Positions 7,855 to 35,355 of a DNA stretch of 37,225 nucleotides are shown piece after piece. Where the stretch lies: IMG/VR virus record IMGVR_UViG_3300037359_000088, positions 1-37,225 of that record; one strand, given 5' to 3'. How positions within the stretch are numbered: the stretch's first letter is position 1; each line of letters starts with the position of its first letter. The translations under genes and the position numbers were made by a program. Below the pieces are notes generated by a model, which saw nothing but the letters and a program-made list of their open reading frames with translations, did not search any database and had not been told where the DNA came from. This stretch comes from a virus (taxonomy: Duplodnaviria > Caudoviricetes).

Positions 7855-7910
7855 GTCTTGGCTACCTCCGTAGCAGTGAGCGAGCACGGTGCCGCTCGAT
7901 CCGTGCACTA

Positions 7911-8048: not shown

Positions 8049-8252
8049 GTGAGTACATTGAGCGATTCGCTCGGAGTAGCCAAGGACGCGAAGATCGTTC
8101 GGCAGCATGAAGCCATCGACCGTCGAGAGGCTGCCGCCCTGGTCGTGACCGGTAAACCGATCACTCCGAGGCAGCGTAAGCTGCTCGGGATCAAAGGCAA
8201 GGAGCCCTCTGCGTCCGAAATACAAAAGGCCCGCAAGCTTCTCGGGGTCTAG
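8049..8252 (+). CDS. Small basic protein on the opposite strand between protease and capsid genes
   Basis: GTG 6 nt after TAAGGT with TTGCAA upstream; fills the intergenic gap; its TAG overlaps the protease TAG in CTAG 8249-8252; K/R-rich. Confidence 0.55.
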   Translation: MSTLSDSLGVAKDAKIVRQHEAIDRREAAALVVTGKPITPRQRKLLGIKGKEPSASEIQKARKLLGV

Positions 8253-13471: not shown

Positions 13472-16400
13472 CTAGCTCGATTCTACCACCTTGACATCGT
13501 TCACCCACCTAATCTGACTGTCATCGCGCCGGTGGTTGCACTTGTTACAGGATGGGAGCAGATTAGCGATCTTGTACCGCCCACCCTGCACGTTCGTGAA
13601 GATCTTATCCTGAGTCAACGACTTCGGGGTAAGGGTGACTCCGCACCAGACGCAAGGACAGGTCGTACCATCGCCAAACTCGGTGAGCAGCTTCGCCGTG
13701 CGACGGTGCCGGTCTGTATTGTTGCCCCGCTTCTCTCCGCCTGCGCGCTTGCTGTGGGCTAGGTCATACGCGTTCGACGCCCGGTCAGCATCCGACGGCA
13801 CCGGGGCGGCGGCGATCTTGTCGGCAGCCTGTTTCGCTATTTGGCTCTGGTCCCATGGAGCGAGCCGGGCCGACGCCTGGATGCGCTCGGGCTCCTTAGG
13901 GGTATTGATGATCGAGTCAAACGGCACCTTCTGGACACTCAGGTTCGGCGCCGGGTCCCACTTCCACTCAATGCCAGCGGCATCGAGCTTGTCCGTGATC
14001 GCCTTGGTCGGCTTGGCGCCGCTAAAGTAAACTTTCTGGATGTCGCTGAGCTGCGGGCGGTCGGCAAACTGGACCTCGACATATTTGCACTGACGGCCAT
14101 CCGAGTAGTCGAGACAATACGGTGGCCGTGGAACGGCCTTGCCGATCGGCACCCTCGGGTCAGCGGTGGCTGCGAGCTTGGCCGGTACACCCAGGAGTCG
14201 ATCGTCCAATGAGTCCCCGCCAGTTACCGTCGCCATGTCAAGCGTCGAATCCTTCATGACCACCTCGACGTCGCCGTACTGACAGGCCCGGAACTCCCGG
14301 TTGGCGTAACTCACGACCGTGTCAGCGTTCAGATTGCCATGACCATCGCCGAGCGAGTAGTACCGAAGCTTAGGCATCCTCGTGGCGTACCGATCAGTAT
14401 CCCAAGGCTTCCGGAGCGCATCACGCGCCTGCGCATCAGCGTATCGCGTTCTCAGGTACTCCCGACTGACCACGTCGATATAATCGCCTTCACCGGCGTT
14501 CATCGACGACGGGGTTATCTCGATGAGCCATCCGTCCGGGTCGGCGCGAATGGCGTCAAGGTCGCCCTTGTTAGTGGGAAGGTAGTCAAGCGCCGATTGC
14601 ACGTCATCCGGGTTGTCAGCGTGCAGGAAGTCACCCGCACCTTTCGGGGCAAGGAAACCGTAAACCGGGCGCTCTGTGGCGGCGGCCGTCTTCGGGATGC
14701 CGAGAGATGACTCCTCACCCTGGAGACGCACGTCGTGATACCACGGCTTCGCCGACATGGAGGTACCGCCTCCGGTCTCGAAGCCGTTCCGGATCTCACC
14801 ATCATCGAGCACCTTCTTGAATGCGGCCGCTTTCATCCGAATCGCTGGGTCGGTCTGAGCCATCCAGGTGGCAAGCGCTTCGCGGGCCTTACCTTGACGT
14901 TCAAAACTCGACTCCGGGTCCTCAGCCGCCCAGTTGTTGCCCAGGCGTTCGCCGGTGGGCTGGAACCCCGATGGGTAGTCAGCAGCCGTAAGGCCACCCC
15001 GATCAGCGTAGGGGATCGGGTGAGGCTGCTCGGCGGTCGGGAAATCGTCGGCCAAGGGAGTACCATCCTTCGCCCATCCGACTGGCGGCAGGGCGGCGTT
15101 GCGTGCGATCGTCTCTTCCAGCGCGCCCGGTACCGCCTGAGACGCTTCCTGAACAGCACTCACGGCCGTTGCTAAGCGATCCTGGCCGACCTTTGCTACC
15201 GTGCCAACCGCTGCAGCCTCAGCTTCGGTTGCTCCGAGGTCACCGACCTTGGCCGCCTCGACTACCGGCGTGATACGGGACGGAGTGAGCAGACTCGGGT
15301 CACAAATCGTGGTTTCGGGGAACTTATTACCAGGTGAGATGTGACTCACGCCTTGGTATCCGGCCTTGTCGAGCGCCGCGTCGAGTGGTTCCTTGTCAAT
15401 CTGGGCCTGGAGCTGGATGCGCCGATACTCGGCGTCACCGCCCGGCAAATCGCGGTTCAGGATATTGATGCCGTCGCCCGCGTGTACTGTAACACTGAGA
15501 ACCTCGTGGTCGGCCTGCCAGGTGGACATGTGTGTGGCATACTCGTTGTCGGCGGCGAGGTACACGCCCGGTCCGCTCTCGCCCATTTTCGACGGCTTCA
15601 GACCATTCTTCAGGATGTCCGGCACGTAGTAGCTGGCCGTCGTGTGATAGTAGGTCTGGTCGCCGGTAAGGCGCGTCGTCCAAGCGTCGGCAGCCATAAC
15701 GGCCTTTTCTGGGGCAACAGGTGGGATCAGGGCCGAGTGGCCGGACACTTTCTCGTAGCCCAGATATGTCAGGTGCACGGTGCCGTCGCCGTCCACCGAC
15801 TCGACCCGGAACACAGACCCGCGGGGGAGCAAAAACTCATCCTCGGCGCTCTTGATTCCGACGTCGTTCATCACCACGCCTGGTGTCCCGGCTGGCAGGT
15901 CGATGACCAGCTTCGTCTTGTCGAACGCGGTGAAGCCCTCAACGTCTCTCGACGTCGACACGTACGCCTTGTCTCGGAACGTCTGGCCTGGCTTCCCCTT
16001 CCAGTTCTTGTGCTCAATCCACCGGACAACCGTCATCGGTTCGTCGGTCGTATCCTTCAGGACAGCCCGGTCCAAGGTTGGCACTTCATCCAGCGCCCGC
16101 CATCCAGGCATCGCCTCCGCATCTTTGGCCAGGGTCAGACCCTTACGCAGCGAACTGTTTATCCGGGTGTAGGCCGCCTGCTGGTAGGCGCCCAGAGCGT
16201 GGGTCTCTTCGGCATCATACTCAGGAGCCAACTTGGCGGCGCCCGCCTCCACAACGGGATTCTTGATTACGACGATGTTCTTCGGATCGAACACGACCAG
16301 GCTCGACCCGGTGCTGATACCGTCGTAACCCTCCTCGGTGGCCAGCTTCTGGACAAGAGCGGGGTCCAGCCTTGGCTCCGTCTGGCTGGCCGAAGCCCAA

Positions 16401-19400
16401 CCCGCGCTGATGGCTTCGGGGCTGGCTCGCGGCTCGTCTTTCCAGCTTCGGGCTACGATATCCCGAGTCGCTTCGGGAGAGGCGACATTGTGCAGGTTGA
16501 CGCGCACCTCCATCAACGCTCCGCCCTTCTTCGGGTCCATGAACTCCTCGTCTCGGGCGAACCCGGCGGCCGTACCTTGCTCCTTGGCAAGGTAAACGCC
16601 GTCTCCGTACATGCGTCCCGTTGTCGCACGCAGTGTCGGATCGAAGCCATTCTCCTCGATCGACTTCTCAGCCTTGAGGGACGTGCCGTGCCAGAACGTA
16701 CCGATCTCGGAGCCCGACGACGTCGACCGCGTCTTGGCAATCCACGCGTCGGCCTCGTCCGAAGTCATAACCGGCTTCCACTCCGGGCCTTCTTCGGCCA
16801 GCTTGGCTGCACCCGTGACCGCCTTCTCCGGTTCCGTGACGGCCTTCACAGTGAGGATCACGGTCGGATTTTCGCCCTCCGAGTGCAAATAGCGATCTAA
16901 GCCAGTGGCCTCGTCCGAAGCTGCCGACGCCCCGGAAAGCACCTCGACATGGGTCACCTCCAGCTTCTGACCTACGAGCCACTCACTCTCGCCCGTACTT
17001 GAGAGGGCTGCGATGTCCAGCGCTCTCGCCCCACCAGTGTCGAGCGTGATCTTCACTCCGCCTTTACCCATGAACAGACGGATGTAATCCTCGTCCGAGC
17101 TGAACGACGCCGCCGTGCCGATGTAGTCGCCGTCAATCACGGCGCCCACCTGCATGTGGGTGAACCTCTCAATCATAGCGAAGTCCGTACCCTCCGCTCC
17201 TTGACCTGGCTGGGTGAACCGCATCCCGCGAAACAGCGGCACGTCATTCCGTGGGGCTTCTTGAACAGTCTTGAACAGGAACTGAGCCGCCTCGTCCGGG
17301 TTCGCCCGCATGGCGGCAATCTTCGCCATGCCTCTACCAGCCCATTCGTCGATACCATCTTTCAACTTCTGAGCGTCCGGATGATCCGCCATCCAGGTTG
17401 CCACCCGGTCGTCAAGCTCCTGTACCTCTTCTGTGCTCCCCCGAGTCAGATGGCTACCCTGCCACTTCAATCGGCTACCCTGCCACTTATCGCTGGAAGC
17501 ACTCAGATCATTCAGAGCCGAGGCTAGATCAGCTGGCGTCTCCTCGGCCAACTTGGCGGCACCGATGGCTGGCGCCTCGGTCAACGCTTTGGCGGGCTTG
17601 AGCTGGACCGTGACAATCGTAGCTGAGTGAGTGAATCCGCCCGCTCTCGGAACATCCCCGGTCCGAACAGACAGAACCTCGAACTGAGAATCACGTGGGA
17701 GCAGGGCCTCAGCTTCGTTCTGGAAATCCATCCTGATCGGAAGCGCCGCCGATCCCTTCGGCAGCCGAACCTCTATGAGCACGCTGTTGGAACCGCTTGC
17801 CCAGTTCGATGAGAATGACCTATCAAGCGAAGTCGAGACGAACCCTTTATCGCTGATGATCTGACCTGGCTTCAGGTCGTGCCAGACGATCTTCTCACCA
17901 CCAACAAGCGTCGTGTCCTCTGCCTGCAGCCCACGCCATGCGGTCAGGTCCTCCGTCGTGTGCGTGTCAGCGATCACCTTGTCCAGTTCAGCGACATTCT
18001 TGTAGAACGCCGGTTGCTGAAGCGTCTCGGTACCAGGCTTCCATTGTGACGGATCTCGGAGCAGCCGGTCGTAAGTCTGCCCAGCCCTGTAGTAGTCATC
18101 AACGGCCTTCTCGGCATCACCGACCTTGGCAGTCATGCCAATCTCAAGACCACGCCCCTCGAACAGCCTATCTATGGCTGCGCGCTGCGCGTCTTTGGCC
18201 GCCCGTCGATCTGCTGCCAGGGAGCCAAGCGGGAGCACCTGCCAATCCTCTGGCTTCGGGAACTCCTCGGGGGCCAGCTTGGCGGCACCGATGGCTGGCA
18301 CCTCGGTCAACGCTTTGGCGTCACGTATCTTCTCCAGCCGGGCGGTCGTATCGTCAAACGCCTGGCTCCACGGCACGACGGCAGGCGGCCAGCCTCTGCT
18401 AAACGACCCGGCCGCCTCGAAGTCTGGGCGAAGTGGCTCGATAGCGTCGATCATCCCCTGGACGTCAACAGCCGAAATCTTCGGCGTGGCCATAGCCAAG
18501 TCAAACAAAGGATCGGCCTTGTCGGGCCTCAAATCCTCAAACGTCCTGCCGTGGTCGATCCCGACCAGGGTTTTCCCGTCATCGACCAGCAACACATTGG
18601 CAACGTTCCGGTCGCCGTTCGCCACCGCATAATCGAAAACCCTGAGCCGCTGCCCGTCGATCGAGTTCCATGCCCGCGTCGTGTTCTGCGGCTTCGGCCT
18701 ACCAGTGACCGGGTCGCGCTTGCGTGGCGTGCTATCGACAAACCTCTCCGCCACCGTAGTATCGTCAACACGCACCACCGCCGGAACCGGGGCGCCCATG
18801 GCTAGACCAAGTTTCGAGGCGAGCACTTCCTGATCGGTGGTGTTCGGGAGATCACCGCCGTAGCTCACCTTCGTGACGCCGGTCGAACCGTCGGCGAACC
18901 GGACACGATAAACGTTGCCCTCAGCTCCAGAGCCGACGACCTCCCCTCTCACAATAGAACCATCTATGGCCGCACTCAGTGAGTCGACATCCTTCCAGTC
19001 TTCGGCTAGCTTGGCAGCTCCAACCAACGGCTCGGTGACCACTACGAGACTCTTCGGGTCCAGAACGACCATTATCTTGTCTATGCCCATGATCGCGTCG
19101 TGGCCGTCAGCCCTAGCCAACTCAGTCACCCTGGCAGCGTATGGTGCCTCGCCGAGCTTCAGATTTTCCTTGATGGCAGCACACATGTACTTCTTCGTCT
19201 GATCGAACGTAGTCGGGTTCTGAACATTGACCCGGATCTTCAGCACTTCACCCGGGACTTCCTTGCGAGCACCAAGACCCGCCCGACCTGGCGTCACATA
19301 TTCGGCGTAGTCCCTGGCCTGCCGTTCGCCCGGCGTGACGTACACTCCGCCACCAAAAGCCTGAACTCCGACCCCAGTCCCACCCTTAGACAAATCGAAC

Positions 19401-22400: not shown

Positions 22401-25400
22401 TCGTCCATGACATTGAGGTACTCGTCCTTCCGTCCCGCCGCCGAGAGACGCGCCTCGTACTTGTGCGAGAACTGGGACCGGAGTGTAGCAACGTCAGCCT
22501 TCGTCACCGCCGAAGCGGCGCCAGCCCTCGTGTCCTCGATGGCCTTGTCGAGTGGATCGACGACAGTGACAGCGGGCTCGGCAGGCTTCAGTGGGGGCAG
22601 GATCGAGTCCGTCGCCCTGACGGGCTTCAGAACCTCTTCTGGTTCTTTGCCTGCCACGCGCCAGTGGAACGCCTCGCCGTACAACTGGGCCGCCTTGTCC
22701 TTGGTAGCTCCTCCTGTCAGGTGCCACTCAGCCCAGCACTCGGCGTACGCCTCTTCAGGGTTCGTCTGCCCATAGGCACTCAGGCCGGTCAACTGGGCCG
22801 CTTTGGACCGCGCAGCATTGGCGTCGATCCATTCCGTGCTGAATGGCTTCAGCTTCGCCAGATCCACCGGGCTAAGGTAGTCGGGAACATTGGCCTTAAT
22901 GTTGGCCATCAGATCGTCGTACACCTGGCGGAAAACTTGGCCCTGGTGGAACAAGACCGCCGGAGTCTGGGCTGTCTCAACCCCGTCCCTCCAGCCCGAA
23001 ATATAGGACGCGTGACCAAACTCGTGGAAGATGTTGTACCGGATCTCGGTTACGTCATTCCGGGCAGGCATGTGCCAGTCCCCGGCATGTGCACCCTGCC
23101 ACGCCTTCTTCTCGTTGAGGTGGATAACGCGAGCTTCATCGCCCCTCATCATCACCCAACCCTGGGCTTCTATCTTGCCCGTCGCCGTCTGCATGATGGC
23201 GTCCTCGCGGATCTCAACCTCGATCGACGGCATCTTCTTGTCGGCAACGCCATAAACGTAGGAGATCTTGTCGCTGTACTGGTCCACGCAGTCGGCCAGA
23301 GCATCGAGGGCCGCCTGGGCGTCTCTCGCCGACGGATAAGGGTGGACACCTGAAGCGATGTGCAGGATGAGCTGTCGACCCTCTTCGTCCTGCATGGCGA
23401 ATACGGTCTTGCTGACCGCGCTCTGGTCGGGCCAGGGATCACCGTTGGGCTTCTTCGGCATGACCAGCGGGCGCATGTCGGGACTGGTAATCCCGCCTAG
23501 TATCGGTGGCTCCTTGGCCAGCTGGGCAGCGCCAGTGGTGACGCCGGGTGAAATCAGCTTCCCGCTCTCATCCTCATAACCCATGTACGTCAGATGAGCG
23601 CTGCTATCGCCGACCGAGTCCACCCGAAACACCGAATCGCGTGGGAGCAGAAACTCGTCCTCTCTGTCCAGCGTGGTCTGAGACACCAACCATTTCCCGC
23701 CGAGGGCGTCCTTCAATACCGCACCCGGAGTACCGACCGGCAAGTCGATCGTCAAACCTGTATTACCGAACAGGCTGTACGTCCCCGGGGACGAAACCGC
23801 CCTTGCAAAATCGGGATCTCTCGACGTCGACACGTACGCCTTATCCCGGAAATCCTGACCCACCTTCATCTTCTTGAGCACCGACAGGTCGACGCATCTC
23901 GAAACAGTCATCGGTTCGTCGGTCGTATCCTTCAGGACGGCTCGATCCAAGACAGCCACATCCGGCTTCTTTCCGTCGCGAAGCTCCTGGTTAATCTGGA
24001 AGTAGCTCTCCGGATCGTTCGAACTAGAGGCATAACCTGCCAGGGCCTTAAGCTCATCGTCGCCATACTCTGGAGCCAGCTTGGCCGCGCCAGAGACCGA
24101 AACGGATGGCTCCACGGTGACATACCAGATGCTGTTCTTGTACTCGGCGCTCGTAACCACCATTGACTGCGAGGCCAGCAGAACTTCCTTTTCCTCGGGA
24201 TAGGTGGACCATTCGGCCACGTCACGACCGACTACTTGCCCGTTAGTGGTGAAAATCACCTTGTTGACACCGGCGCCGTAAGCGGCAACCCTGTCCCTGT
24301 CGGCGGTGAAAGACGTCATCGGCGCCGTCAGGTCGACGTGTGCGCCTACGACCGGAGCGTCGCCGAACATCCTCTCAAAGCCATCGTCGTCGAGACCGAG
24401 CGAGCGGTAGACGGGCCCGTCATAAGTGCCACCGCGAACCCAGGCGGCGGCAGCGTCCATCTGCTTAGGCTTGATAGGAACGCCCCAGTCGCCACCCTTG
24501 GCCGTGTAGTGCTTGATGCCAGCTATCGCATCGGCGCCCGGTCCCCCGGCAACCGACACGACTTCTGGCTTCGGAACCGATGGCTTCGGAACCGATGGCT
24601 TCGGGACGGCGGGCTTTGCCTCAGGAGGTGAAACGACCGTCCCATCGCCCCGGTCGTAGCCCGTGTATGTCGCATGAACATTGCCGTCCGCATCCACCGA
24701 GTCAATCCTGAACGTCGAGCCATGTGGGAGTAGCAGTTCCTGCTCGCTCTCGCGGGACATCTCTTCCGGAACGTCTCGGTATTTCTGGTCCAAGGTGGGC
24801 ATCCACGCTCCCGGCGTCCCGGTCGGCAAGTCGATGATCATCTTGTAGTCGTGCTCCGGATTTCCCCACACAAAGTCGAGGTCTCTCGATGTCGAGACGT
24901 ACGCCTTGTCTGTGAACGTCTGGCCAGCCTCCAACGCGATCCGGTTGCCGTGAGCGTCGTTAAAGCCCATCCACCGGAGAACCGTCACCGGCTCGGTAGT
25001 CGTGTTCTTCGCTATAGCGCTGTCCAGGGGCGCTAAAGTCCGAGCCGACGTCCAGGCCGAGGACTCGCCCTCGCGTAGCGCCTCATTGATGTGCTGAAAA
25101 GTCACATCCTGGTAGTCCGACAGAGCGTAAACCTCGTCTTGAGTCCAGGCCCTATCGGTAACTGGAGCCAGCTTGGCGGTGCTCGCCACGGGCACCGCGG
25201 GCTTGGCGAGCTTCTCTGGCACAAAGGGCGTGATCCGTTCGTCGGGCTTCAGCACGTCGGCCAGCTTGGCCACCTCTGGCTCGGCCGCCTCCTCGACCGG
25301 CTTGATGCTGGCTGCCATCCTATCGAGCGTGTTCTTGTCGAAGTACCTGTCAATCACTCCAGGAATAACCAGGTGACCCTTGTCCTTGCCATAGATCTTC

Positions 25401-28400
25401 GCTCCAGCGGCACGCTGGACTGCCGTGGCAGCCGTGCTCCGTTCCAGATCTTCCTGCGCCGCCCGTACCGCGTCCGGGTGAGCGTTGGCTATGCCCTGGA
25501 GCACCCGGTTCTGAACGTCCGAGTCCTCCCCAGCTTTCAAGTCGTACGTGCGGCCGACCGTGACGATGTTCTCCTCATCGAACACGACGATCACGTTGTC
25601 GGCGGTCAGGGAGTCGTAACCGAGTGCCCGCGCCTTCGCCGTCACATTCTCGGCGTATTTCAACTGCTCGGCTCCGGTGCCGAACCAGCTAAAGCCGGGA
25701 CCCATCTCCTTCACTGTCTCGCTCATCAACCGCTGCGTGACCCCGGCCGGGGCCGGGTTCTTGATGTTGAGCCGCAGCTCCAGCATGTCGGTACCATAAG
25801 ACTGGACGTCCTCGGGCAGCTCTCCCGTGTAGACGCCTACCCCCATCGAAGCGCCCGTCGTCGACTTGCGCGACAGATCGAACCCGGACTCCCTAACACC
25901 CCTTGCCCCGGCCTTCGTCGTCGCATGGAACACAGGGGTCTGCCGAACCGAGTCGGCTGCCCATGCGTCGGCCTCGTCCGGAGTCATAACCGGCTTCCAC
26001 TCCGGGGTTTCCTCGGCCAGCTTAGCGGCACCCGCGACCGGCTCGGCTGCTACGGAGAACGCCTCAGCTGACCGCTCCTTGAAGTTGTCCTCGGCGTCCT
26101 TGAGTTTAGCGAGGATCGTGTCGTATTCTGAACTCCTGCCTGCCGCCGCAAAGTCTGTCTCGTACTGCTCGAAGTCCTCCCTCATATCCGTGATCGCGTT
26201 CACGGTGGGCTTTCCGCTGGCGCCCCACCCGTGCGTAAGGTTGTATGGGAGGTTCCTGTTTATCTTCTCGATCTCTTTGTCGAGGTCCTCCACCTTCGAC
26301 GGAAGCCACTTCGGTAGCGGCGCCTCTTCAGCCAGCTTGAGTGGCTCGGCGGCTTCTTCGGTCAACCGGACCGTGACCTGCTGGACTCCGCTCTTGTCAA
26401 CCTTGATCGAAAGCACCTCAAAGGCTTGGCCTCGTGGAAACAGGACTTCGTTTTCTTCACCACCCAGTGCCAAAGCGGTAGAACCCTTCGAGACCTGGAT
26501 CGTGACCAGTGCCGGATGCTCGGAGCCAAGGTACTCGAACGCCTCTGCGTTCTTCTTGACCAGCGAGGTAGAAACAAACCCGTCATCCCGGAACGTAGCT
26601 CCGACCTTCAGATTGCTGAGATCGAGATCCATTCCTCGAAACAGGGTCACGTCCTCCTTAGTGCTGCTGTCCGCTATCGCCTTGTCAAGCGGAGCGCACA
26701 CCTTGAGTAGGGCGGTTCGTTCCTTGCGCGTACCAACCCTCAGGATCTCGTTCCAATCACTCCCACCTGGCCCGCTGACCGCAATACCACTTTCATCGGC
26801 CGTCACCTGACCGGCCTCGCCCCTGTACCCCTCAACAGCCCGCTCGGTCTTCGCGTCAAACTCCGCTTCGTTCCGAGGCCCAGAGAACGTACCGGTAAAC
26901 AGGCGGGACATCTCTTCCTGAGTAGGGCCTTCTTCGGCCAGCTTGGCTGCACCCGTGACCGCTTCTCTTGTGACCTTGCCATCCACCACTGCCTGGAAAC
27001 GGGCCATCATTTCCTTGTAGGCATCTTCGCCGTAGGTGTTGCCCATCCGTACGGCCACGAAATCCGGCTCCAGCGCCTTGACCTTGACGATCATCGTCCG
27101 GACATCCTCAGCCGAAATGTCCGGCGTAGCGGCGAAGATGGCTTTGATCGTCCCGGCGTCGACAGACGGGACGTTATCGCCAGAGACGAAGACATTCCCG
27201 TACCGTGCGCCCGCGTCGCCGTGACTCCAGCAAATGCCGTGGTCGATACCAACCGGCCCATCTTTGGTCAGTATCCAGTTCGACGGGTTCCGGTCCGAGT
27301 TGCCGATGACGTAGTCAAACAGGGCGAGCTTCTGACCTCCAGAGGATGCTATCGCCTCTTCCCTGTCCATCCGGGTTTCTATGCCACCACCTGAGATGGC
27401 TGAGGCGAAGCTGCGCCAAAACTTCGGATCAGAGCCGTTCGTGCCCTCTACCAGACGCATAACCACACTGTCAAGGTTCTCGGGCGGCGGTGTCTCAACA
27501 ACCCTACCTGTGAATCTTGCAAGCCCGCCCGGGAAGTTATCGTCTATAGCCTCGACAACGTGAGCATCTGAGGTAGCACGGGATACGGGAACCCCGAACG
27601 TATCCGACAGCCAGTCCCGCGCTTCATTGAGCTGTGCATCGGTCAGTGCGACCTGCCCGGGTCGGACCACCACCGCTGCCCGGATGACGGCCGGTACCGG
27701 GGCGCCCATAGCCACGCCTACCTCAGAAGCAAGTACCTCGCTGTCGATCTTTTCGTCGTGATAGCCCTTCGGGCCAAAGAAGTCTTTGATGACTCCCGTC
27801 GAGCCGTCACCGAACTTGATCTCGGTGACCTTGCCCTCAACACCGTGACCCAGCTCCGTTCCGCGACTCACGATTCCGGAGTCAAGTGACACCTCCAGGG
27901 CGCTACGGTCGCTGATGTCCTCGGCGAGTTGGGCGGCGGCCACGAACGGCTTACCCGCGATTACCGCCTCCGTCTTGAGCTTCTCATCTCGGATGAAGCC
28001 GAGATACGCGTTCACGTGGACGTCGACGTTCGGGATCTTGGCGACGCTGTCCATCATCTGCTGGATGTCGGCAGCCGAGATATCGGGTAGGACCTTGGCG
28101 ACAGACTCTACGGCATCGGCAGCACCTGCCGGTAAGAACGGTGTGTAGCAAGTCTCGCCGTATGAGAATGAGAACCCGTGGTCGATGCCAACCGGACCAT
28201 CCGTCGTCATGATCCAGTTCGACGGGTTGCGGTCAGTGTTGCCGATGACGTAGTCGAACAGTCCAAGCCGCTGGCCCGCCGGACTCTTCAGCAGGTCTTC
28301 CTCAGCCTTGTCGGCTACGGCGTGGAAGTCTACCCTCCAGTCCCCTCCGCCCTTCGCCAGTTGTAGTCGGTGCCAGGCATTCCCATCCGGACCCTCGACG

Positions 28401-31213
28401 AACCGCTCGGCCAGCGTGTGATTGTCAATCTTCACCACAGCCGCGACCTTTACTCCCATGGCGACTCCAACCTCGGAAGCCTCCACTTCCTTATCGAGGT
28501 TGAACTCTGTAGCGCTATAACCAGTTCTGTACGATCCCAGGTAGGTCTTTACAACGCCGGTCGTCCCGTCCGCAAAGGTGGCCTCCTTCACGGTGCCCTG
28601 GACGCCGCTGCCAACCTCATAGCCTTCCTTGTACGGCCCGGCGGCCACCGAGTCCTTCAGGGCGTCGATGTCATAGATGTCGACCTTGGCCAGCTGAGCC
28701 TCGGCGTGATACGCGGCGTCGATCCGGTCGACCGTAGCCGACATATCGGCGTAGACAGCGTCCGCTTCGGTGCCGTCCCAGCCGAACAACGCGGCCATCT
28801 TTGTAGACAGCTCGTCCGTGCCTCCGAGGACGTAGTTCGCGTGCGTCTCACCGATCGCCTCGATAAGACTTCCGCCTCCGTACTGGGACAGGTCGGTCGC
28901 CTTGCGCAGGTCTACCCACGCCGCAGCAGCCTGCTCCTGAAGATCGGCCAGCACGGGAAGGGAGTCCAGGGGGCCGCCGATATCTGCGGCCAACCTCGAC
29001 AGATGGGCGTCGTCATAGAACTTCCAACCTTCACCCGGCTCCCCGATCAGCTCCGCCAACAGGTCGCTTGCTGCGATGTTGGACTTGTCGACGGCGATCG
29101 ACATCTGGAACTGGAACTGGTGACCTGTCTCGTGAGCCATCAGGTAGCGGCCCTCACCAAGGGCGGAGACCGTAGCGTCGGGCGACGTGAGCGCAGCCTG
29201 CGGCATGAACCAATCCGGATGAGACTGGTTGTAGCCGTACCAATCTCTAGTCTGGCTCGCCCGGCCTCCAACCTCGATCGTCCTGGGGTTGTCGGACATG
29301 ACACAGGCCAGGTCCTTTTTCGCCATGGCGTTCTCGCCACCGAAGACGACCGTTGTGCCGGGAGCAGCAAACTCATTGGCACCCCGCATGTAGTCGAGAA
29401 CTAGCGGGTCGTCGGCCGTCCAGCCCGATCCCGCCCTGATCTCGCCCTTGATGCGGCCAAGGTCGACATTGATCGAGCCACCCGGGCCGGGCCGCTTAAG
29501 TGGTGTACCCCAGCGCTTCGGCACCTTCACCTCGTGAGCATCCGCCTCGCTCATGTGTGTGCCGGGACGCCGCACCGTATCGAGGGGCCGAGCGGTAGCC
29601 TTCGCGGCTTCCCCTGCTCCTGTGGCTTCCTTCTCAACTCCCTCGGTGGTGACCTGTTCCGCTACTGCTGACGGCGGCGGTGTGTAGACGCCTCCAGGCC
29701 CCATATTTTCTAGTCCAGTAGTCGGAACATCCGGATTCACTTCCGGCTCTTCGCCTTCATCAGCAGTCGAGTCCGTCGTTAGGGGCGCGGATGACGTGAT
29801 CACGTCGCACCGGCAGCTCGGATGTCCAGGTGGGGCGGTGTCACCGCTCGGAAAGTCGTCCTCAAGCGGGATCGGCCCAGACTCGACGTTCTGCATACAG
29901 TAGTCGCACGGCATCCCCTCTGTGGCGATCCACGCTTTGGCGGTCGAGCCCGCGGCTTCCCCAACTGCCAAGGTTGACGAGCAGGAAGCGGAGCAGGACT
30001 CCGTGCGGGCGATCGTCTCGGCACGGCTACCCGACGCCTGAGTGAACACCTTCTGGACGGCGTCCTGCATATCGCGAGTACCACCACCGGCCTGCTGCGT
30101 CTTCAGTATCGCGTCCTGAATCTGCCGGTACGTCGTGTCCTCACACCCGACGATCCGGTTAAGCTGGGCGTCGTACGCGGCCTTCAGTCCCGGGTCAGCC
30201 TTTCCAAAGGTGATCTGGAGCCGATTCGCCTCGTCACCGGCAAAGTCGTTCATCATCCCGTTCAGCCAGTTCCCGGCGTCATCGGCCAGCTTCTGGCTCA
30301 TCTCGTCCGTCGGGAAGATAGCCTCGCCAACCGCCTCGGCCTGGGACTGGCCCGCCTGACCGGCCATCTGCATGAAGTTGGCGACGTTCTGTGCCTGGTT
30401 CTGGGCGGCCTGTTGCTGCGTCTCTCCCTTCGTGGGGAGGTTCACCGGCGAGAAGTTTTCGAGCAGCCGCTTCAGCGTATCGTTAAACTTCTCATTCGGA
30501 TTGGCCAGAGCCGCCACCTGGGCATTAGCCGACGTCTGGGCAGCAACAGCCGACTGGACCTGCGTCCAGGCCGCCTCCTGTTCATCGGGTGTAGTGGCAG
30601 CTACCTGAGCGGAGCGAGCGGCGATGATCTTCTGGTTAGCTTTTCCGTAATCAGCTAGAGCTTTCTGAGCTTCCTGGCGGGCCTCTTCTTCGGCGGCTTC
30701 CCTACGAACCTCAGCTTCCGTCCGGGCAACTTCTGCCTCTTGCGCCGCCCTTACCGCCGCCTCGCGCTTTGTTATCTCCTCTTCTTCTTCAGTGGCTCCA
30801 AGGGCGACGGCGGTGATCTCGTCACCGGGCCCGGCGAAATACTGGGTGGCGGCCTGTTGCGGCGTCTCTCCCTGCTGGGCCTGCCCCGCCTTAGGCTTGG
30901 GCTTATCGGCCTTGACCTCGGCCACCGAAAGCCCTTTGGTCCCAGTGGCCAGGTGGTGCAGGTTGGCCAGGACGACCCGCTGCTCATACGCAAAGTGAGC
31001 GCGCATGTAGTGCTTGATCGTCTCCTCCCACACGCCGATCTTATGACGACGCCGGGCGATGTAAGTGAGCAGATCCTTCTCTGTGAGTGGCTGCCCGTAG
31101 AGGGTGTGGGAGGTGAACTTAGGTGCAGCCTTCTCTCCGCGCCGGAACCAGGGAGTTACCGGAAACGGGATCAGAACCGAAAGCGCTCTGTGGGGGGCCG
31201 TGATCATCGACAC
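13472..31213 (-). CDS. Giant (5913 aa) MuF/SPP1 gp7-like head morphogenesis protein fused to about 22 toxin/effector domains (polyvalent protein)
   Basis: GTG abuts the portal stop; located between portal and protease; MuF motif RAETIARTE...KAWIA...CDYC...PPGHPSCRC; repeated ART, kinase, HExxH and HNH motifs. Confidence 0.9.
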   Translation of the reverse strand: MSMITAPHRALSVLIPFPVTPWFRRGEKAAPKFTSHTLYGQPLTEKDLLTYIARRRHKIGVWEETIKHYMRAHFAYEQRVVLANLHHLATGTKGLSVAEVKADKPKPKAGQAQQGETPQQAATQYFAGPGDEITAVALGATEEEEEITKREAAVRAAQEAEVARTEAEVRREAAEEEARQEAQKALADYGKANQKIIAARSAQVAATTPDEQEAAWTQVQSAVAAQTSANAQVAALANPNEKFNDTLKRLLENFSPVNLPTKGETQQQAAQNQAQNVANFMQMAGQAGQSQAEAVGEAIFPTDEMSQKLADDAGNWLNGMMNDFAGDEANRLQITFGKADPGLKAAYDAQLNRIVGCEDTTYRQIQDAILKTQQAGGGTRDMQDAVQKVFTQASGSRAETIARTESCSASCSSTLAVGEAAGSTAKAWIATEGMPCDYCMQNVESGPIPLEDDFPSGDTAPPGHPSCRCDVITSSAPLTTDSTADEGEEPEVNPDVPTTGLENMGPGGVYTPPPSAVAEQVTTEGVEKEATGAGEAAKATARPLDTVRRPGTHMSEADAHEVKVPKRWGTPLKRPGPGGSINVDLGRIKGEIRAGSGWTADDPLVLDYMRGANEFAAPGTTVVFGGENAMAKKDLACVMSDNPRTIEVGGRASQTRDWYGYNQSHPDWFMPQAALTSPDATVSALGEGRYLMAHETGHQFQFQMSIAVDKSNIAASDLLAELIGEPGEGWKFYDDAHLSRLAADIGGPLDSLPVLADLQEQAAAAWVDLRKATDLSQYGGGSLIEAIGETHANYVLGGTDELSTKMAALFGWDGTEADAVYADMSATVDRIDAAYHAEAQLAKVDIYDIDALKDSVAAGPYKEGYEVGSGVQGTVKEATFADGTTGVVKTYLGSYRTGYSATEFNLDKEVEASEVGVAMGVKVAAVVKIDNHTLAERFVEGPDGNAWHRLQLAKGGGDWRVDFHAVADKAEEDLLKSPAGQRLGLFDYVIGNTDRNPSNWIMTTDGPVGIDHGFSFSYGETCYTPFLPAGAADAVESVAKVLPDISAADIQQMMDSVAKIPNVDVHVNAYLGFIRDEKLKTEAVIAGKPFVAAAQLAEDISDRSALEVSLDSGIVSRGTELGHGVEGKVTEIKFGDGSTGVIKDFFGPKGYHDEKIDSEVLASEVGVAMGAPVPAVIRAAVVVRPGQVALTDAQLNEARDWLSDTFGVPVSRATSDAHVVEAIDDNFPGGLARFTGRVVETPPPENLDSVVMRLVEGTNGSDPKFWRSFASAISGGGIETRMDREEAIASSGGQKLALFDYVIGNSDRNPSNWILTKDGPVGIDHGICWSHGDAGARYGNVFVSGDNVPSVDAGTIKAIFAATPDISAEDVRTMIVKVKALEPDFVAVRMGNTYGEDAYKEMMARFQAVVDGKVTREAVTGAAKLAEEGPTQEEMSRLFTGTFSGPRNEAEFDAKTERAVEGYRGEAGQVTADESGIAVSGPGGSDWNEILRVGTRKERTALLKVCAPLDKAIADSSTKEDVTLFRGMDLDLSNLKVGATFRDDGFVSTSLVKKNAEAFEYLGSEHPALVTIQVSKGSTALALGGEENEVLFPRGQAFEVLSIKVDKSGVQQVTVRLTEEAAEPLKLAEEAPLPKWLPSKVEDLDKEIEKINRNLPYNLTHGWGASGKPTVNAITDMREDFEQYETDFAAAGRSSEYDTILAKLKDAEDNFKERSAEAFSVAAEPVAGAAKLAEETPEWKPVMTPDEADAWAADSVRQTPVFHATTKAGARGVRESGFDLSRKSTTGASMGVGVYTGELPEDVQSYGTDMLELRLNIKNPAPAGVTQRLMSETVKEMGPGFSWFGTGAEQLKYAENVTAKARALGYDSLTADNVIVVFDEENIVTVGRTYDLKAGEDSDVQNRVLQGIANAHPDAVRAAQEDLERSTAATAVQRAAGAKIYGKDKGHLVIPGVIDRYFDKNTLDRMAASIKPVEEAAEPEVAKLADVLKPDERITPFVPEKLAKPAVPVASTAKLAPVTDRAWTQDEVYALSDYQDVTFQHINEALREGESSAWTSARTLAPLDSAIAKNTTTEPVTVLRWMGFNDAHGNRIALEAGQTFTDKAYVSTSRDLDFVWGNPEHDYKMIIDLPTGTPGAWMPTLDQKYRDVPEEMSRESEQELLLPHGSTFRIDSVDADGNVHATYTGYDRGDGTVVSPPEAKPAVPKPSVPKPSVPKPEVVSVAGGPGADAIAGIKHYTAKGGDWGVPIKPKQMDAAAAWVRGGTYDGPVYRSLGLDDDGFERMFGDAPVVGAHVDLTAPMTSFTADRDRVAAYGAGVNKVIFTTNGQVVGRDVAEWSTYPEEKEVLLASQSMVVTSAEYKNSIWYVTVEPSVSVSGAAKLAPEYGDDELKALAGYASSSNDPESYFQINQELRDGKKPDVAVLDRAVLKDTTDEPMTVSRCVDLSVLKKMKVGQDFRDKAYVSTSRDPDFARAVSSPGTYSLFGNTGLTIDLPVGTPGAVLKDALGGKWLVSQTTLDREDEFLLPRDSVFRVDSVGDSSAHLTYMGYEDESGKLISPGVTTGAAQLAKEPPILGGITSPDMRPLVMPKKPNGDPWPDQSAVSKTVFAMQDEEGRQLILHIASGVHPYPSARDAQAALDALADCVDQYSDKISYVYGVADKKMPSIEVEIREDAIMQTATGKIEAQGWVMMRGDEARVIHLNEKKAWQGAHAGDWHMPARNDVTEIRYNIFHEFGHASYISGWRDGVETAQTPAVLFHQGQVFRQVYDDLMANIKANVPDYLSPVDLAKLKPFSTEWIDANAARSKAAQLTGLSAYGQTNPEEAYAECWAEWHLTGGATKDKAAQLYGEAFHWRVAGKEPEEVLKPVRATDSILPPLKPAEPAVTVVDPLDKAIEDTRAGAASAVTKADVATLRSQFSHKYEARLSAAGRKDEYLNVMDDLRDLEKTKPLVAEVAKAEAAKVATAAEIENWVDVNAWGVAKGIKIDSNLEAHISVDTMKTVTSVIDKLDAKYPGLSDDLTIDYKPGEIGQAASVGSIDANGRPNIMGAALHPTTRSVLYISRNLTDEQLADAIRGGTNAARSVEDAYIHEMGHVMQNSTAWMRQIPGQGLDMAQAVAPIDVNLERSLIRQAMQEAGYADKGGARVRKLISEDISGYAADKNDLEFDAETFMLFNRPGGISDLSAEAQQRLRTYAAALDRLTGRTAKAEVTEAAKVATAADFTAVKLPGADKVIEGYSDFGVDWNENLRAWHWAPGRSDPTVDIPIAKKMDAIIAANTAKADVTVYRGMDWDLSKLKVDDTFMDKGFVSTTWDKGSAQSFTGINVHAGETPHPVLLTIEVPAGSHVLPIGAMGVAEEGEVLLPRMSKFTVLSNTVDDKGVRQVSLKLVEYGPGEGPARVVTGAAWQGAAKLASDYDDAPALQKALDVGAFKVGSEIGSGAEGTVTEVTFADGTTGVQKVFTPTRGEESETEVLASKVGLAIGAPVPAALRSAPNAIVERLVAGSTFQGLPMDVTDAARASEAGQRLKVFDWAVGNNDRSVTNIMLGTDGKIVGIDHGLVFRNPGTVSLVVKRQAFEETPDISAADVQKMLDDIKPLKGDFAKAGTVSRYQHLETPLPHYAYDEASYGQIYDEMTSRLEQLRDVKLGVVPVTGAAKLAPEVDIHDAVALQSALDAGEITRGDMIGDGAQADVYDCTFADGTSGVLKGFTSSAEGDTQARDEMLASKIGAVMGAPVPAVLLIPGMPRTVAERFVKGTVGTLVEDHDREVAFASAQGQRLGLFDWTVGNADRNEGNWILTADGPVGIDHGIIWQPDSGVNSPFISGLKFEKYEEVGLDDVVKATKDISPDEVHAMIVKLQALEPAFGADVPFLDDSVSRLMEVEDAKREALRATTGAAKLAPPEWKPVMTSDEADAWASDSVVKDLMYHGTATPGTAASIRDTGFDLSKGGTGVGVQAFGGGVYVTPGERQARDYAEYVTPGRAGLGARKEVPGEVLKIRVNVQNPTTFDQTKKYMCAAIKENLKLGEAPYAARVTELARADGHDAIMGIDKIMVVLDPKSLVVVTEPLVGAAKLAEDWKDVDSLSAAIDGSIVRGEVVGSGAEGNVYRVRFADGSTGVTKVSYGGDLPNTTDQEVLASKLGLAMGAPVPAVVRVDDTTVAERFVDSTPRKRDPVTGRPKPQNTTRAWNSIDGQRLRVFDYAVANGDRNVANVLLVDDGKTLVGIDHGRTFEDLRPDKADPLFDLAMATPKISAVDVQGMIDAIEPLRPDFEAAGSFSRGWPPAVVPWSQAFDDTTARLEKIRDAKALTEVPAIGAAKLAPEEFPKPEDWQVLPLGSLAADRRAAKDAQRAAIDRLFEGRGLEIGMTAKVGDAEKAVDDYYRAGQTYDRLLRDPSQWKPGTETLQQPAFYKNVAELDKVIADTHTTEDLTAWRGLQAEDTTLVGGEKIVWHDLKPGQIISDKGFVSTSLDRSFSSNWASGSNSVLIEVRLPKGSAALPIRMDFQNEAEALLPRDSQFEVLSVRTGDVPRAGGFTHSATIVTVQLKPAKALTEAPAIGAAKLAEETPADLASALNDLSASSDKWQGSRLKWQGSHLTRGSTEEVQELDDRVATWMADHPDAQKLKDGIDEWAGRGMAKIAAMRANPDEAAQFLFKTVQEAPRNDVPLFRGMRFTQPGQGAEGTDFAMIERFTHMQVGAVIDGDYIGTAASFSSDEDYIRLFMGKGGVKITLDTGGARALDIAALSSTGESEWLVGQKLEVTHVEVLSGASAASDEATGLDRYLHSEGENPTVILTVKAVTEPEKAVTGAAKLAEEGPEWKPVMTSDEADAWIAKTRSTSSGSEIGTFWHGTSLKAEKSIEENGFDPTLRATTGRMYGDGVYLAKEQGTAAGFARDEEFMDPKKGGALMEVRVNLHNVASPEATRDIVARSWKDEPRASPEAISAGWASASQTEPRLDPALVQKLATEEGYDGISTGSSLVVFDPKNIVVIKNPVVEAGAAKLAPEYDAEETHALGAYQQAAYTRINSSLRKGLTLAKDAEAMPGWRALDEVPTLDRAVLKDTTDEPMTVVRWIEHKNWKGKPGQTFRDKAYVSTSRDVEGFTAFDKTKLVIDLPAGTPGVVMNDVGIKSAEDEFLLPRGSVFRVESVDGDGTVHLTYLGYEKVSGHSALIPPVAPEKAVMAADAWTTRLTGDQTYYHTTASYYVPDILKNGLKPSKMGESGPGVYLAADNEYATHMSTWQADHEVLSVTVHAGDGINILNRDLPGGDAEYRRIQLQAQIDKEPLDAALDKAGYQGVSHISPGNKFPETTICDPSLLTPSRITPVVEAAKVGDLGATEAEAAAVGTVAKVGQDRLATAVSAVQEASQAVPGALEETIARNAALPPVGWAKDGTPLADDFPTAEQPHPIPYADRGGLTAADYPSGFQPTGERLGNNWAAEDPESSFERQGKAREALATWMAQTDPAIRMKAAAFKKVLDDGEIRNGFETGGGTSMSAKPWYHDVRLQGEESSLGIPKTAAATERPVYGFLAPKGAGDFLHADNPDDVQSALDYLPTNKGDLDAIRADPDGWLIEITPSSMNAGEGDYIDVVSREYLRTRYADAQARDALRKPWDTDRYATRMPKLRYYSLGDGHGNLNADTVVSYANREFRACQYGDVEVVMKDSTLDMATVTGGDSLDDRLLGVPAKLAATADPRVPIGKAVPRPPYCLDYSDGRQCKYVEVQFADRPQLSDIQKVYFSGAKPTKAITDKLDAAGIEWKWDPAPNLSVQKVPFDSIINTPKEPERIQASARLAPWDQSQIAKQAADKIAAAPVPSDADRASNAYDLAHSKRAGGEKRGNNTDRHRRTAKLLTEFGDGTTCPCVWCGVTLTPKSLTQDKIFTNVQGGRYKIANLLPSCNKCNHRRDDSQIRWVNDVKVVESS
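13500..13770 (-). other. Domain: C-terminal Zn-binding HNH-like nuclease
   Basis: CPCVWCG...LTQDKI....GGRY..ANLLPSCNKCN; the usual DH dyad appears as DK. Confidence 0.7.
13955..14900 (-). other. Domain: DUF3626-like (possible ART-fold) domain with a long insertion
   Basis: VLDDGEIRNGFETG, R...E..SLG, RPVYGFL, QYGDV, TVTGGDS, YVEVQ, L.DI..V; family recognised from memory of the motif order. Confidence 0.55.
15285..15690 (-). other. Domain: His-type ART-like domain 4
   Basis: YYHTT...ILKNGL, GPGVYLA, GYQGV, PETTICDP. Confidence 0.7.
15755..16220 (-). other. Domain: VIP2-like ART 8
   Basis: ALGAY..INSSLR, VVRW, DKAYVSTS, EDEFLLPR. Confidence 0.85.
16265..16787 (-). other. Domain: His-type ART-like domain 3 (ART-PolyVal-like)
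   Basis: FWHGTS..GF, YGDGVYLA, AGFA, GYDGI, LVVFDP. Confidence 0.75.
16845..17530 (-). other. Domain: compact R-S-E ART 7
   Basis: LFRG, ASFS......F, DIAALSSTGESEWL. Confidence 0.75.
17600..18260 (-). other. Domain: VIP2-like ART 6
   Basis: YDRLLR, AWRG, DKGFVSTS, EAEALLPR. Confidence 0.85.
18320..19000 (-). other. Domain: HipA/PI3-PI4K-like kinase 5
   Basis: GSGAEG, GVTK, EVLAS, FDYAVANGDRNVAN, GIDHG. Confidence 0.85.
19040..19526 (-). other. Domain: His-type ART-like domain 2 (ART-PolyVal-like)
   Basis: MYHGT..GF, GGGVY, RDYA, NVQNP, GHDAI, MVVLDP. Confidence 0.75.
19570..20245 (-). other. Domain: HipA/PI3-PI4K-like kinase 4
   Basis: GDGAQA, GVLK, EMLAS, FDWTVGNADRNEGNW, GIDHG. Confidence 0.85.
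20285..20980 (-). other. Domain: HipA/PI3-PI4K-like kinase 3
   Basis: GSGAEG, GVQK, EVLAS, FDWAVGNNDRSVTN, GIDHG. Confidence 0.85.
21060..21550 (-). other. Domain: VIP2-like ART 5
   Basis: WNENLR, VYRG, DKGFVSTT, EGEVLLPR. Confidence 0.85.
21610..22315 (-). other. Domain: zincin metallopeptidase 3
   Basis: YIHEMGH ... ISGYA....LEFDAE. Confidence 0.8.
22660..23480 (-). other. Domain: zincin metallopeptidase 2
   Basis: NIFHEFGH ... LSAYGQTNPEEAYAE. Confidence 0.8.
23575..24070 (-). other. Domain: VIP2-like ART 4
   Basis: ALAGY..INQELR, TVSRC, DKAYVSTS, EDEFLLPR. Confidence 0.85.
24110..24535 (-). other. Domain: compact R-S-E ART 3
   Basis: VYRS, TSFT..R.VA..Y, DVAEWSTYPEEKEVL. Confidence 0.75.
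24566..24604. repeat. 15-bp tandem repeat encoding a PKPSV linker
   Basis: tggcttcggaaccga x2 plus a partial third copy. Confidence 0.9.
24655..25150 (-). other. Domain: VIP2-like ART 2
   Basis: ALSDY..INEALR, TVLRW, DKAYVSTS, EQELLLPH. Confidence 0.85.
25560..26006 (-). other. Domain: His-type ART-like domain 1 (ART-PolyVal-like)
   Basis: VFHATT..GF, GVGVY, SYG, NIKNP, GYDSL, IVVFD. Confidence 0.7.
26360..26900 (-). other. Domain: VIP2-like R-S-E ADP-ribosyltransferase 1
   Basis: TLFRG, GFVSTS, ENEVLFPR. Confidence 0.85.
26970..27915 (-). other. Domain: HipA/PI3-PI4K-like kinase 2 (with insertion)
   Basis: GHGVEG, GVIK, EVLAS, FDYVIGNSDRNPSNW, GIDHG. Confidence 0.85.
27960..28670 (-). 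other. Domain: HipA/PI3-PI4K-like kinase 1
   Basis: GSGVQG, GVVK, EVEAS, FDYVIGNTDRNPSNW, GIDHG. Confidence 0.85.
28740..29470 (-). other. Domain: zincin metallopeptidase 1
   Basis: YLMAHETGH ... LSQYG...IEAIGE. Confidence 0.75.
29795..30330 (-). other. Domain: MuF (Phage_Mu_F) head morphogenesis domain
   Basis: RAETIARTE, KAWIATEG..CDYC..N, F.SG...PPGHPSCRC. Confidence 0.9.
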
Positions 31214-35117: not shown

Positions 35118-35355
35118 TCTCCTTCTTACGGCGCCAGAACCGGCGCCCACTCCGGGTGTCGACGCGAGCGACGCTCACCCATTCTGGCGGGAAGTGGAAA
35201 AGGCCGTGCTCGCCTTTCTTGCCTCCTACCGCCTCTACCCACGCCTTGTTACCAGACATACAGAAAGCCACAAACCGATACGTCCCACGCACGCCCTTGA
35301 CCTGCAGGAGTGTGCCTGCAGCGATCCCTTCCCAGTTCGTCACCCGAATGATCAC
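35104..35355 (-). CDS. Hypothetical SH3-like beta protein
   Basis: ATGA overlap with the upstream WhiB gene; GTLLQVKGVRGTYRF...WVEAVG. Confidence 0.6.
   Translation of the reverse strand: MIIRVTNWEGIAAGTLLQVKGVRGTYRFVAFCMSGNKAWVEAVGGKKGEHGLFHFPPEWVSVARVDTRSGRRFWRRKKENDGD

Follow-up and report, generated by a model that had tools for sequence, protein, structure and literature searches.

A reiterated GAAKLA linker at the module joints of a giant MuF polyvalent protein is a candidate processing signal

Results

The giant MuF protein and its modules

The window analyzed in this study is the whole linear virus record IMGVR_UViG_3300037359_000088 (Caudoviricetes; 37,225 nt; completeness estimate 34%), on whose minus strand a portal-2H fusion (31214-33421), an open reading frame (ORF) of 5,913 amino acids (aa; 13472-31213), small ORFs, an S78 protease (8249-10813), and an HK97-fold capsid protein (6457-7908) follow one another. 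The 5,913-aa ORF encodes a giant MuF polyvalent protein, and our subject is the hexapeptide GAAKLA that recurs at the joints between its modules, which an initial annotation, made from the sequence alone, had proposed to be a polyprotein cleavage signal. Pfam searches together with a self-comparison divided the protein into 25 segments with 24 joints, namely MuF, three HExxH (zincin-like) modules, five kinases, six VIP2/Alt-type ADP-ribosyltransferases (ARTs), two ART-like, four PARP-like, and two small helical segments, one unknown segment, and an HNH nuclease:

13472..31213, minus strand: giant MuF polyvalent protein, 5,913 aa, 635 kDa, about 25 modules
29798..30124, minus strand: MuF (SPP1 gp7-like) head domain, aa 364-472; PF04233 at E 2.3e-6 and 28.7 bits, just under the cut-off, plus TIGR01641 and PHROG head families
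28706..29599, minus strand: zincin-like module 1, HETGH at aa 694, YGGGSLIEAIGE; sequence motif, no significant Pfam match
22607..23515, minus strand: zincin-like module 2, HEFGH at aa 2730, YGQTNPEEAYAE; sequence motif
21590..22330, minus strand: zincin-like module 3, HEMGH at aa 3087, EAAKVA on either side; sequence motif
26954..28687, minus strand: kinase modules 1 and 2 (PI3/4K-HipA-like)
20270-20986, 19547-20251, and 18290-19003, minus strand: three further kinase modules
within 15716..26935, minus strand: six VIP2/Alt-type ART modules at aa 1427, 2017, 2381, 3215, 4315, and 4997; PF03496; R/STS/ExE motifs
within 15716..26935, minus strand: two ART-like modules at aa 2201 and 4557; R/STS/ExE motifs
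within 15260..26014, minus strand: four PARP/ART-PolyVal-like modules at aa 1734, 3896, 4807, and 5167
15260..15715, minus strand: last PARP-like module, missing in a natural in-frame variant (joint 15259/15715)
13475..15241, minus strand: unknown module (aa 5325-5764) and C-terminal HNH nuclease

Judged by its domain architecture, the giant protein belongs to the polyvalent class: several unrelated enzymatic domains lie in one chain, a MuF domain is recognized by three libraries, the gene is located between portal and protease, and three intact HExxH motifs are each accompanied by a downstream Glu. All five kinase modules carry N-x-D-R and IDHG motifs, and an atypical kinase fold (RIO/PI4K-like) is predicted for kinase 4 by AlphaFold2 (AF2) modeling. 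The three zincin modules gave no family-level profile match, and none to PF18818 (MPTase-PolyVal); a sequence search for a relative with a solved structure found none, and neither did a homolog search with module 3. The ESM Atlas look-alikes of zincin-like module 2 include Pro-Pro endopeptidase, M90, and ATLF clusters, which we regard as leads only. The unknown 440-aa module (window 13922-15241) recurs in P0024 and P0124, two of the tagged polyproteins described below, and has a weak Atlas lead to DUF3626 (0.83).

No homolog of the giant protein was found among 985 candidates scored. A phmmer search of 1.84 billion representatives gave 807 matches at E<=0.001, and the best 150 of these comprised one identical fragment and proteins of at most about 50% identity. 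The MuF search returned only two weak matches, and scans of viral contigs with protease, portal, and kinase gave nothing, or only a near-identical record. This second viral record agrees with the window at 14,903 of 14,904 bases. Sixteen peat or permafrost metagenome runs contain at least half of the sampled words of the window, with three of the 16 possibly its source; RNA runs contain only 5-7% of these words.

The motif marks the module joints and lies outside the folds

The eleven exact GAAKLA copies named in the initial annotation were all found, within about 10 nt of the coordinates given there, as were all of its variants, to which VPEKLA can be added:

26936..26953, minus strand: GAAKLA, aa 1421
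26015..26032, minus strand: GAAKLA, aa 1728
24074..24091, minus strand: GAAKLA, aa 2375
20987..21004, minus strand: GAAKLA, aa 3404
20252..20269, minus strand: GAAKLA, aa 3649
19529..19546, minus strand: GAAKLA, aa 3890
19004..19021, minus strand: GAAKLA, aa 4065
18272..18289, minus strand: GAAKLA, aa 4309
17546..17563, minus strand: GAAKLA, aa 4551
16796..16813, minus strand: GAAKLA, aa 4801
16226..16243, minus strand: GAAKLA, aa 4991
28688-28705, minus strand: variant AEAQLA
27923-27940, minus strand: variant AAAQLA
26330-26347, minus strand: variant EPLKLA
25259-25276, minus strand: variant EVAKLA
25205-25222, minus strand: variant VPEKLA (aa 1998)
25166-25183, minus strand: variant STAKLA
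23516-23533, minus strand: variant GAAQLA
22331-22348 and 21572-21589, minus strand: variant EAAKVA
15242-15259, minus strand: variant EAAKVG

Against the eleven exact copies, 0.004 are expected, and no hexamer exceeded two copies in 300 shuffles of the protein. The pattern A[KQ][LV][AG] occurs 24 times (2.1 expected), 19 times at joints and five times elsewhere. The motif stands between domains, as initially described, at 19 of the 24 joints; two further joints have weak look-alikes (EAAKAT at aa 535, SARLA at aa 5781), and three are free of it (between ART 2 and the following ART-like module, zincin 2 and a helical segment, and ART 6 and PARP-like module 4). One linker (aa 1980-2016) holds three copies, and the linker flanks are rich in Pro, Glu, and Val. 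Over the 19 copies, the Lys position is Lys 16 times and Gln three times, the next position is always hydrophobic (Leu 16, Val 3), and the one after that always small (Ala 18, Gly 1). By computation, cleavage at all 19 would yield an 89.6-kDa N-terminal piece, a 64.1-kDa C-terminal piece, and, between them, 18 internal pieces that range from 11.6 to 43.5 kDa; eleven of the 18 internal pieces fit the 20-30 kDa predicted earlier, the full range being wider.

A GAAKLA-like motif is absent from the protease, capsid, and portal of this phage. A DNA motif scan gave 108 loci, among which multiple in-frame copies occurred only in the near-identical record, apart from two chance pairs, and no ORF with at least two AA[KQ][LV][AG] matches was present in 165 capsid-clade loci.

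The motif lies outside the folds. Modules of four unrelated families follow it at fixed spacing (41-44 aa to the core anchor of the kinases, 9-11 aa in the case of the PARP-like modules), and stand-alone homologs of the modules do not carry it and begin after it. When kinase 4 was modeled with both flanks (31-row alignment, predicted local distance difference test (pLDDT) score 87), the upstream copy formed a low-confidence coil; a single-sequence model was uninformative (pLDDT 37). The stand-alone homologs and the coil led us to reject the idea that the motif is an integral N-terminal helix of each domain, one of the findings by which the initial annotation itself would have been overturned.

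The peptide is selected, and the copies share DNA ancestry

The ratio of nonsynonymous to synonymous differences (pN/pS) over the 19 copies is 0.27 (0.21 in the core), compared with 0.95 and 0.81 in the flanks, and it is biased low as the copies were chosen partly by peptide likeness. First and second codon positions are conserved across the copies, third positions being mostly near background. These data support the earlier claim that the motif is kept at the peptide level. The varied synonymous codons on which that claim had been based are only part of the picture: there are indeed ten distinct 18-mers among the eleven exact copies, but their codons are more alike (0.52) than gene-wide usage predicts (0.375; p=0.0013), and the copies therefore also share DNA ancestry. 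Stretches of near-identical DNA (43/44 nt, 58 nt at 91%, and 29/29 nt) extend across joints that separate different domain families, and module swaps probably use such linker DNA as a recombination joint as well.

A natural variant lacks one module up to the motif

In contigs from four of the eight runs examined (four study codes), the joint 15259/15715 replaces 455 nt by 23 nt, which results in a net in-frame loss of 144 codons and removes the last PARP-like module. On one side, the breakpoint is the first base of EAAKVG. Of the four runs, one supports the joint with a shorter side of 189 nt, the other three with one of 30 nt. The edge of the variant coincides with the motif, so one border of module gain or loss is the motif, which stays with the downstream module. 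Three other joints (22660/25997, 22581/25933, and 22593/23425) came from single runs with sides below 30 nt, and we took them for likely artefacts. A 17-codon in-frame indel within the second ART-like module (window 16877-16929) was present in two of the eight runs.

The site pattern inferred for the prohead protease is a different one

31214..33421, minus strand: portal fused to a C-terminal 2H phosphoesterase, directly upstream of the giant gene
8249..10813, minus strand: HK97-type S78 prohead protease with a long [EQ]-x-K-rich extension; PF04586 at E 1.4e-9; no GAAKLA-like site
6457..7908, minus strand: HK97-fold major capsid protein; PF05065; Lys175-Asp at the predicted end of the delta domain

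Recurring Lys sites in the protease and the capsid had been taken as a parallel to the linker; they are real, but they follow [EQ]-x-K and not AAK. Counting only sites that do not precede Pro ([EQ]xK[^P]), we found ten in the protease (3.0 expected), six in the capsid delta domain (1.4 expected), and none in the mature capsid. The giant protein has 15 where 30.9 are expected, and none of 2,000 local shuffles went this low (528 vs 642 in the homolog control); its ratio is the lowest of 29 long ORFs of the clade, and this avoidance is an indirect hint of packaging and injection. In all 126 aligned capsids, Lys175 is present and followed by Asp; its P3 position is variable, with Ala in 2 of 76. 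After E-x-K in 33 relatives (926 sites), Ser is enriched 2.2-fold and Ala 1.5-fold, whereas Leu reaches only 0.49-fold. Under a profile made from the proteases and delta domains of six relatives, which is noisy as most of the training Lys are not sites, GAAK↓LA ranks 257-267 of 318 Lys sites (↓ marks the bond considered). The His and the Ser of WSIGY, which we take to be catalytic, are invariant in 6 of 6 S78 proteases. By its motifs, the giant protein does not qualify as an S78 substrate, since the predicted S78 sites have the form [EQ]-x-K with a small or acidic P1', and the linkers read A-A-K↓L. Within the protease extension there are also a DnaJ-like zinc finger and, following QTK↓A, a His-rich stretch; a further site there, AGK↓AFDPDQ, is similar to the tag starts of relatives.

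Distant MuF polyproteins carry other tags at their joints

In a survey of 151 proteins (the giant protein and its 150 best phmmer matches), His/Gly-rich or Pro/Arg-rich tag patterns were present in 51, often once per module. The sole match of the giant protein lies inside an ART domain, so that it is not tagged at each module start in this manner; the tags belong to the 50 other matching proteins. The tag G[DE]xxGHxF[HR]GNQ was found at 216 loci (237 contexts, 130 groups), and the preceding residue was Lys in 174 contexts, Leu in 37, Ala in 13, another residue in 13, and Gln in 0 of 237. This residue agrees within groups at 0.95, compared with 0.61 after shuffling (maximum 0.77 in 5,000). Lys co-occurs with S78 or S78_2 in four genomes, and Leu or Ala with Mu-like or DUF2213 proteases in three; no head protease was identified in the remaining tagged genomes scanned, and a first PF04586 search of 40 tagged genomes was insensitive (one match). 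As the residue before the tag tracks the head protease, cleavage at module joints is sound as a general reading, and at first this favored S78. In P0012, a K↓GD tag occupies the same joint before a PARP-like module. The tag is widespread (L158-L373, e.g., L194, L180, and L389) with a genome-specific preceding residue (K, L/A, or E), and our literature search found no paper on a tag of this type.

Capsid-clade relatives combine other linkers with zincins

Close S78 homologs were present in 24 of 28 and 9 of 16 records of capsid relatives. Some relatives with near-identical S78 use Lys-free linkers, G-[MFL]-[RA]-S or TG[AS]M. A blind 4-mer scan of 33 relatives called linkers in three of them, TGAM (G041), GMRS (G042), and GFAS (G065), and its other results were CPPG, which belongs to a conserved tag domain, and a proline-rich PARP that barely exceeded the null. 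G042 and G065 share an orthologous HExxH domain, and a search with it led to L631, L632, G079, and G072. In L631, L632, and G079, there are 19, 21, and 11 copies of G[MLF][RA]S, respectively (about one expected), and G072 has five copies of LSSG (0.18 expected). Among the 38 relatives with at least 3,500 aa that were scanned (eight smaller ones were dropped), a hydrophobic-centered linker and HExxH co-occur in eight, HExxH alone in seven, the linker alone in none, and neither in 23. Apart from the linker of L464, the clade linkers present a hydrophobic residue among small ones, like AAK-L-A. Clade capsids are about 50% identical, and the linkers are wholly different. The window has a very long branch (3.54) in the capsid tree, and the placement of this branch was not used.

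A conserved, unannotated HExxH...E[GL][MS]AEL zincin family (L583:16710-17522, L585:8304-9056, L631, L632, L634, and L640) appears to be co-inherited with G-[MFL]-[RA]-S, and as far as sequence can tell, it is a good candidate for a dedicated polyprotein-processing protease. In L586:2227-13980, a 3,918-aa ORF includes the S78 protease and 14 G[FL]AS linkers.

Other genes of the window and beyond

The ORFs at 35352-35918 and 36567-36977, which we take to be WhiB-like by their motifs rather than by a profile scan, suggest an actinobacterial host. A long (S/T)-D-x-A repeat protein is encoded on the opposite strand (window 3-3002, plus strand), and a Thr-rich, virion-like protein follows the capsid (window 4528-5649, minus strand); both gave no Pfam match. 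Beyond the window, a terminase-like ORF (L157:1498-5034) has an apparent intein with a homing endonuclease, as judged by eye.

Discussion

Our analyses indicate that the reiterated linker is real and under selection. Its location outside the folds, its occurrence once per module, and its place at the edge of a natural indel make cleavage by some protease, whichever it may be, probable, and in this respect the initial annotation holds, whereas a Lys-specific prohead protease as the cutter is now disfavored. The reading that we prefer, though tentatively, is that the motif is a tag at the joints with likely cut sites A-[KQ]↓[LV]-A, and that the cutter is one of the three putative zincins. From family knowledge only, MuF would load the chain into the prohead and ejection would follow. 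The chain would survive capsid maturation by S78 because it avoids the [EQ]-x-K sites of the prohead protease, and a zincin with a hydrophobic S1' pocket would then cut before Leu or Val, in the head or after ejection. This would free about 20 enzymes of 12-44 kDa, and the ADP-ribosyltransferases, kinases, and nuclease among them may act on the bacterial host early in infection. N-terminal Leu is a bacterial N-degron residue. A cut before Leu (e.g., at 26942-26953) would leave such an N-terminus, and one may speculate that it acts as a timer for the freed enzymes.

That the Leu/Val position is always hydrophobic, the next residue small, and Lys three times replaced by Gln is in keeping with the preference of zinc proteases such as thermolysin and ZMPSTE24 for a hydrophobic P1' (PMC7948416). 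With the scissile bond assumed at this position, P1' is hydrophobic at 19 of 19 candidate sites. Cleavage at KLA↓ was set aside, as Pro comes next in 6 of 19 copies, and so was a Gly-P1 protease, as Gly is present in only 12 of 19. Zincin autoprocessing has been proposed for polyvalent proteins (PMC5512222, section 8), and from the sequences, the protein's own zincins, the other cutter named in the initial annotation, appear to fit better than the prohead protease. Extending this to the clade, still more tentatively, two proteolytic codes may exist: S78 would clear the scaffold at E/Q-x-K, and a lineage-specific zincin would later dice the cargo at its own linker (AAK↓LA here; G↓MRS, G↓FAS, and TGA↓M in relatives), the linkers being at the same time in-frame DNA joints for the gain and loss of modules.

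Several observations weigh against a zincin as the cutter. The nominal p of 1e-4 for the co-occurrence of linker and zincin makes the case look stronger than it is, as the blind set alone, without the window, gives p=0.052; the eight co-occurrences correspond to about two independent lineages, with G047 and G079 sharing an identical ORF; three linker genomes were reached via the zincin itself, and the calls in G047 and G072 were not blind. Size is a confounder, since the linker-bearing relatives are among those with the largest cargo sets. Seven zincin-bearing relatives have no such linker, the window zincins show no detectable kinship with the linker-linked zincin family of the relatives, and zincins are ordinary cargo in Lys-tagged polyproteins. 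The giant ORF L464:3-7754 has a basic linker, R-[ST]-GRATRR, without a hydrophobic center (eight copies of R-[ST]-GRATR), and G-[LM]-[RA]-S copies occur in L456, L461, L468, and L446 with no HExxH within the 10 kb of these truncated metagenome loci. Furthermore, Lys is the commonest P1 (16 of 19 copies), and in the AF2 model of kinase 4, the last helix runs into the downstream copy (pLDDT about 70).

The alternative closest to the initial annotation is that S78, in the course of head maturation, cuts after Lys (AAK↓LA), which would make the Gln copies dead sites. HK97 protease cuts at K103/S104 (PMC10275583), the residue before the tag in distant MuF polyproteins is genome-specific and follows the head protease, P0012 places its K↓GD tag at the same joint, and the P3 position at capsid Lys175 tolerates variation including Ala. 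We nevertheless consider this unlikely, as GAAK↓LA ranks so low even if the profile is noisy, Leu is depleted after E-x-K, Gln never precedes the distant tag and yet occupies 3 of 19 positions here, the motif is missing from this phage's protease, capsid, and portal, and relatives with near-identical S78 carry linkers without Lys. About equally unlikely is an uncut docking function, in which the motif would act as encapsulin cargo-loading peptides do and attach each module to the scaffold or to the inner wall of the capsid, and the chain would be ejected whole or cut elsewhere. Such peptides have about 10 aa, are preceded by linkers rich in Ala, Pro, and Gly, and bind with an avidity that rises with their number (PMC8229669), features to which the Pro/Glu/Val-rich flanks, the tolerated Lys/Gln exchange, and the three copies in one linker could correspond, and the N4 virion RNA polymerase is packaged unprocessed despite its zincin (PMC5512222). 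However, MuF should already anchor the chain, one copy per module is better suited to release, and capsids of about 50% identity would hardly be expected with entirely different linkers.

We give little credit to the idea that the motif is no more than a spacer, multiplied through duplication and gene conversion and used as a joint for DNA recombination. The near-identical DNA across joints of different families, the likeness of the codons, and the indel that ends at the motif all agree with it, but conserved first and second codon positions next to third positions mostly near background, and a pN/pS of 0.21-0.27, do not. Equally little speaks for a host protease acting after ejection, or for internal starts from GGTG/GGAG and CTG/TTG in the linker DNA. 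Of the eleven exact copies, nine do have GGT/GGA and ten CTG/TTG; this codon bias is explained by shared ancestry, the Val copies use GTT/GTC, and internal starts should yield nested long products and not single modules, while lineage-specific motifs point to a phage-encoded reader.

The giant protein resembles the described polyvalent proteins in having MuF, ART, kinase, zincin, and nuclease domains in one chain among head genes (Iyer et al., 2017, PMC5512222; 2022, PMC9503650), in the adjoining portal-2H fusion, and in the zincin processing proposed there (PMC5512222); MuF-ART fusions have also been described (PMC9503650). It differs in its about 25 modules, compared with 2-15 domains there (PMC5512222), in zincins without a PF18818 match to the polyvalent MPTases, and in the hexapeptide reiterated at joints, the word 'linker' occurring 0 times in PMC5512222. 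As would be the case here, T4, phiKZ, and SPN3US package effectors including an ADP-ribosyltransferase in the head and process them at a short motif, L/I-x-E for T4 gp21 (internal proteins, Alt), S/A-x-E for phiKZ gp175, and A-x-E for SPN3US gp245 (PMC9026906, PMC10052503). In those phages, the prohead protease trims propeptides, and the capsid carries the same motif; the motif of the giant protein is repeated inside the chain and absent from protease, capsid, and portal. With HK97 gp4 (S78; delta-domain cut at K103/S104; PMC10275583), the window shares the protease and capsid families and a conserved Lys at the predicted delta end, but its linker falls outside the Lys-site pattern inferred for its clade. 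MuF polymorphic toxins carry a variable C-terminal toxin. Like the giant protein, they join MuF to C-terminal enzymatic effectors within a head module, and the portion of their description available to us does not mention cleavage (Jamet et al., 2017, PMC5576092). Encapsulin cargo-loading peptides are also short motifs in flexible linkers used with an HK97-fold shell, but they are usually terminal and on small cargo (PMC8229669). We found no paper on reiterated linkers of such kind in a search that covered neither most subscription journals nor supplements, and the latter may list such proteins.

The passage of polyvalent head proteins of 300-600 kDa through portal and tail, and their possible processing by zincins, have been a matter of proposal since 2017. 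In the giant protein, a precisely defined and repeated candidate site comes together with three enzymes that might cut it, a protease that competes with them, and a module deletion found in nature, and with these in hand the question becomes testable with short fragments in E. coli. If the proposed cleavage is true, there would be a second, delayed processing code in HK97-type heads with new sequence-specific proteases, and the giant protein would be a self-processing bacteriophage polyprotein that releases about 20 enzymes from one gene.

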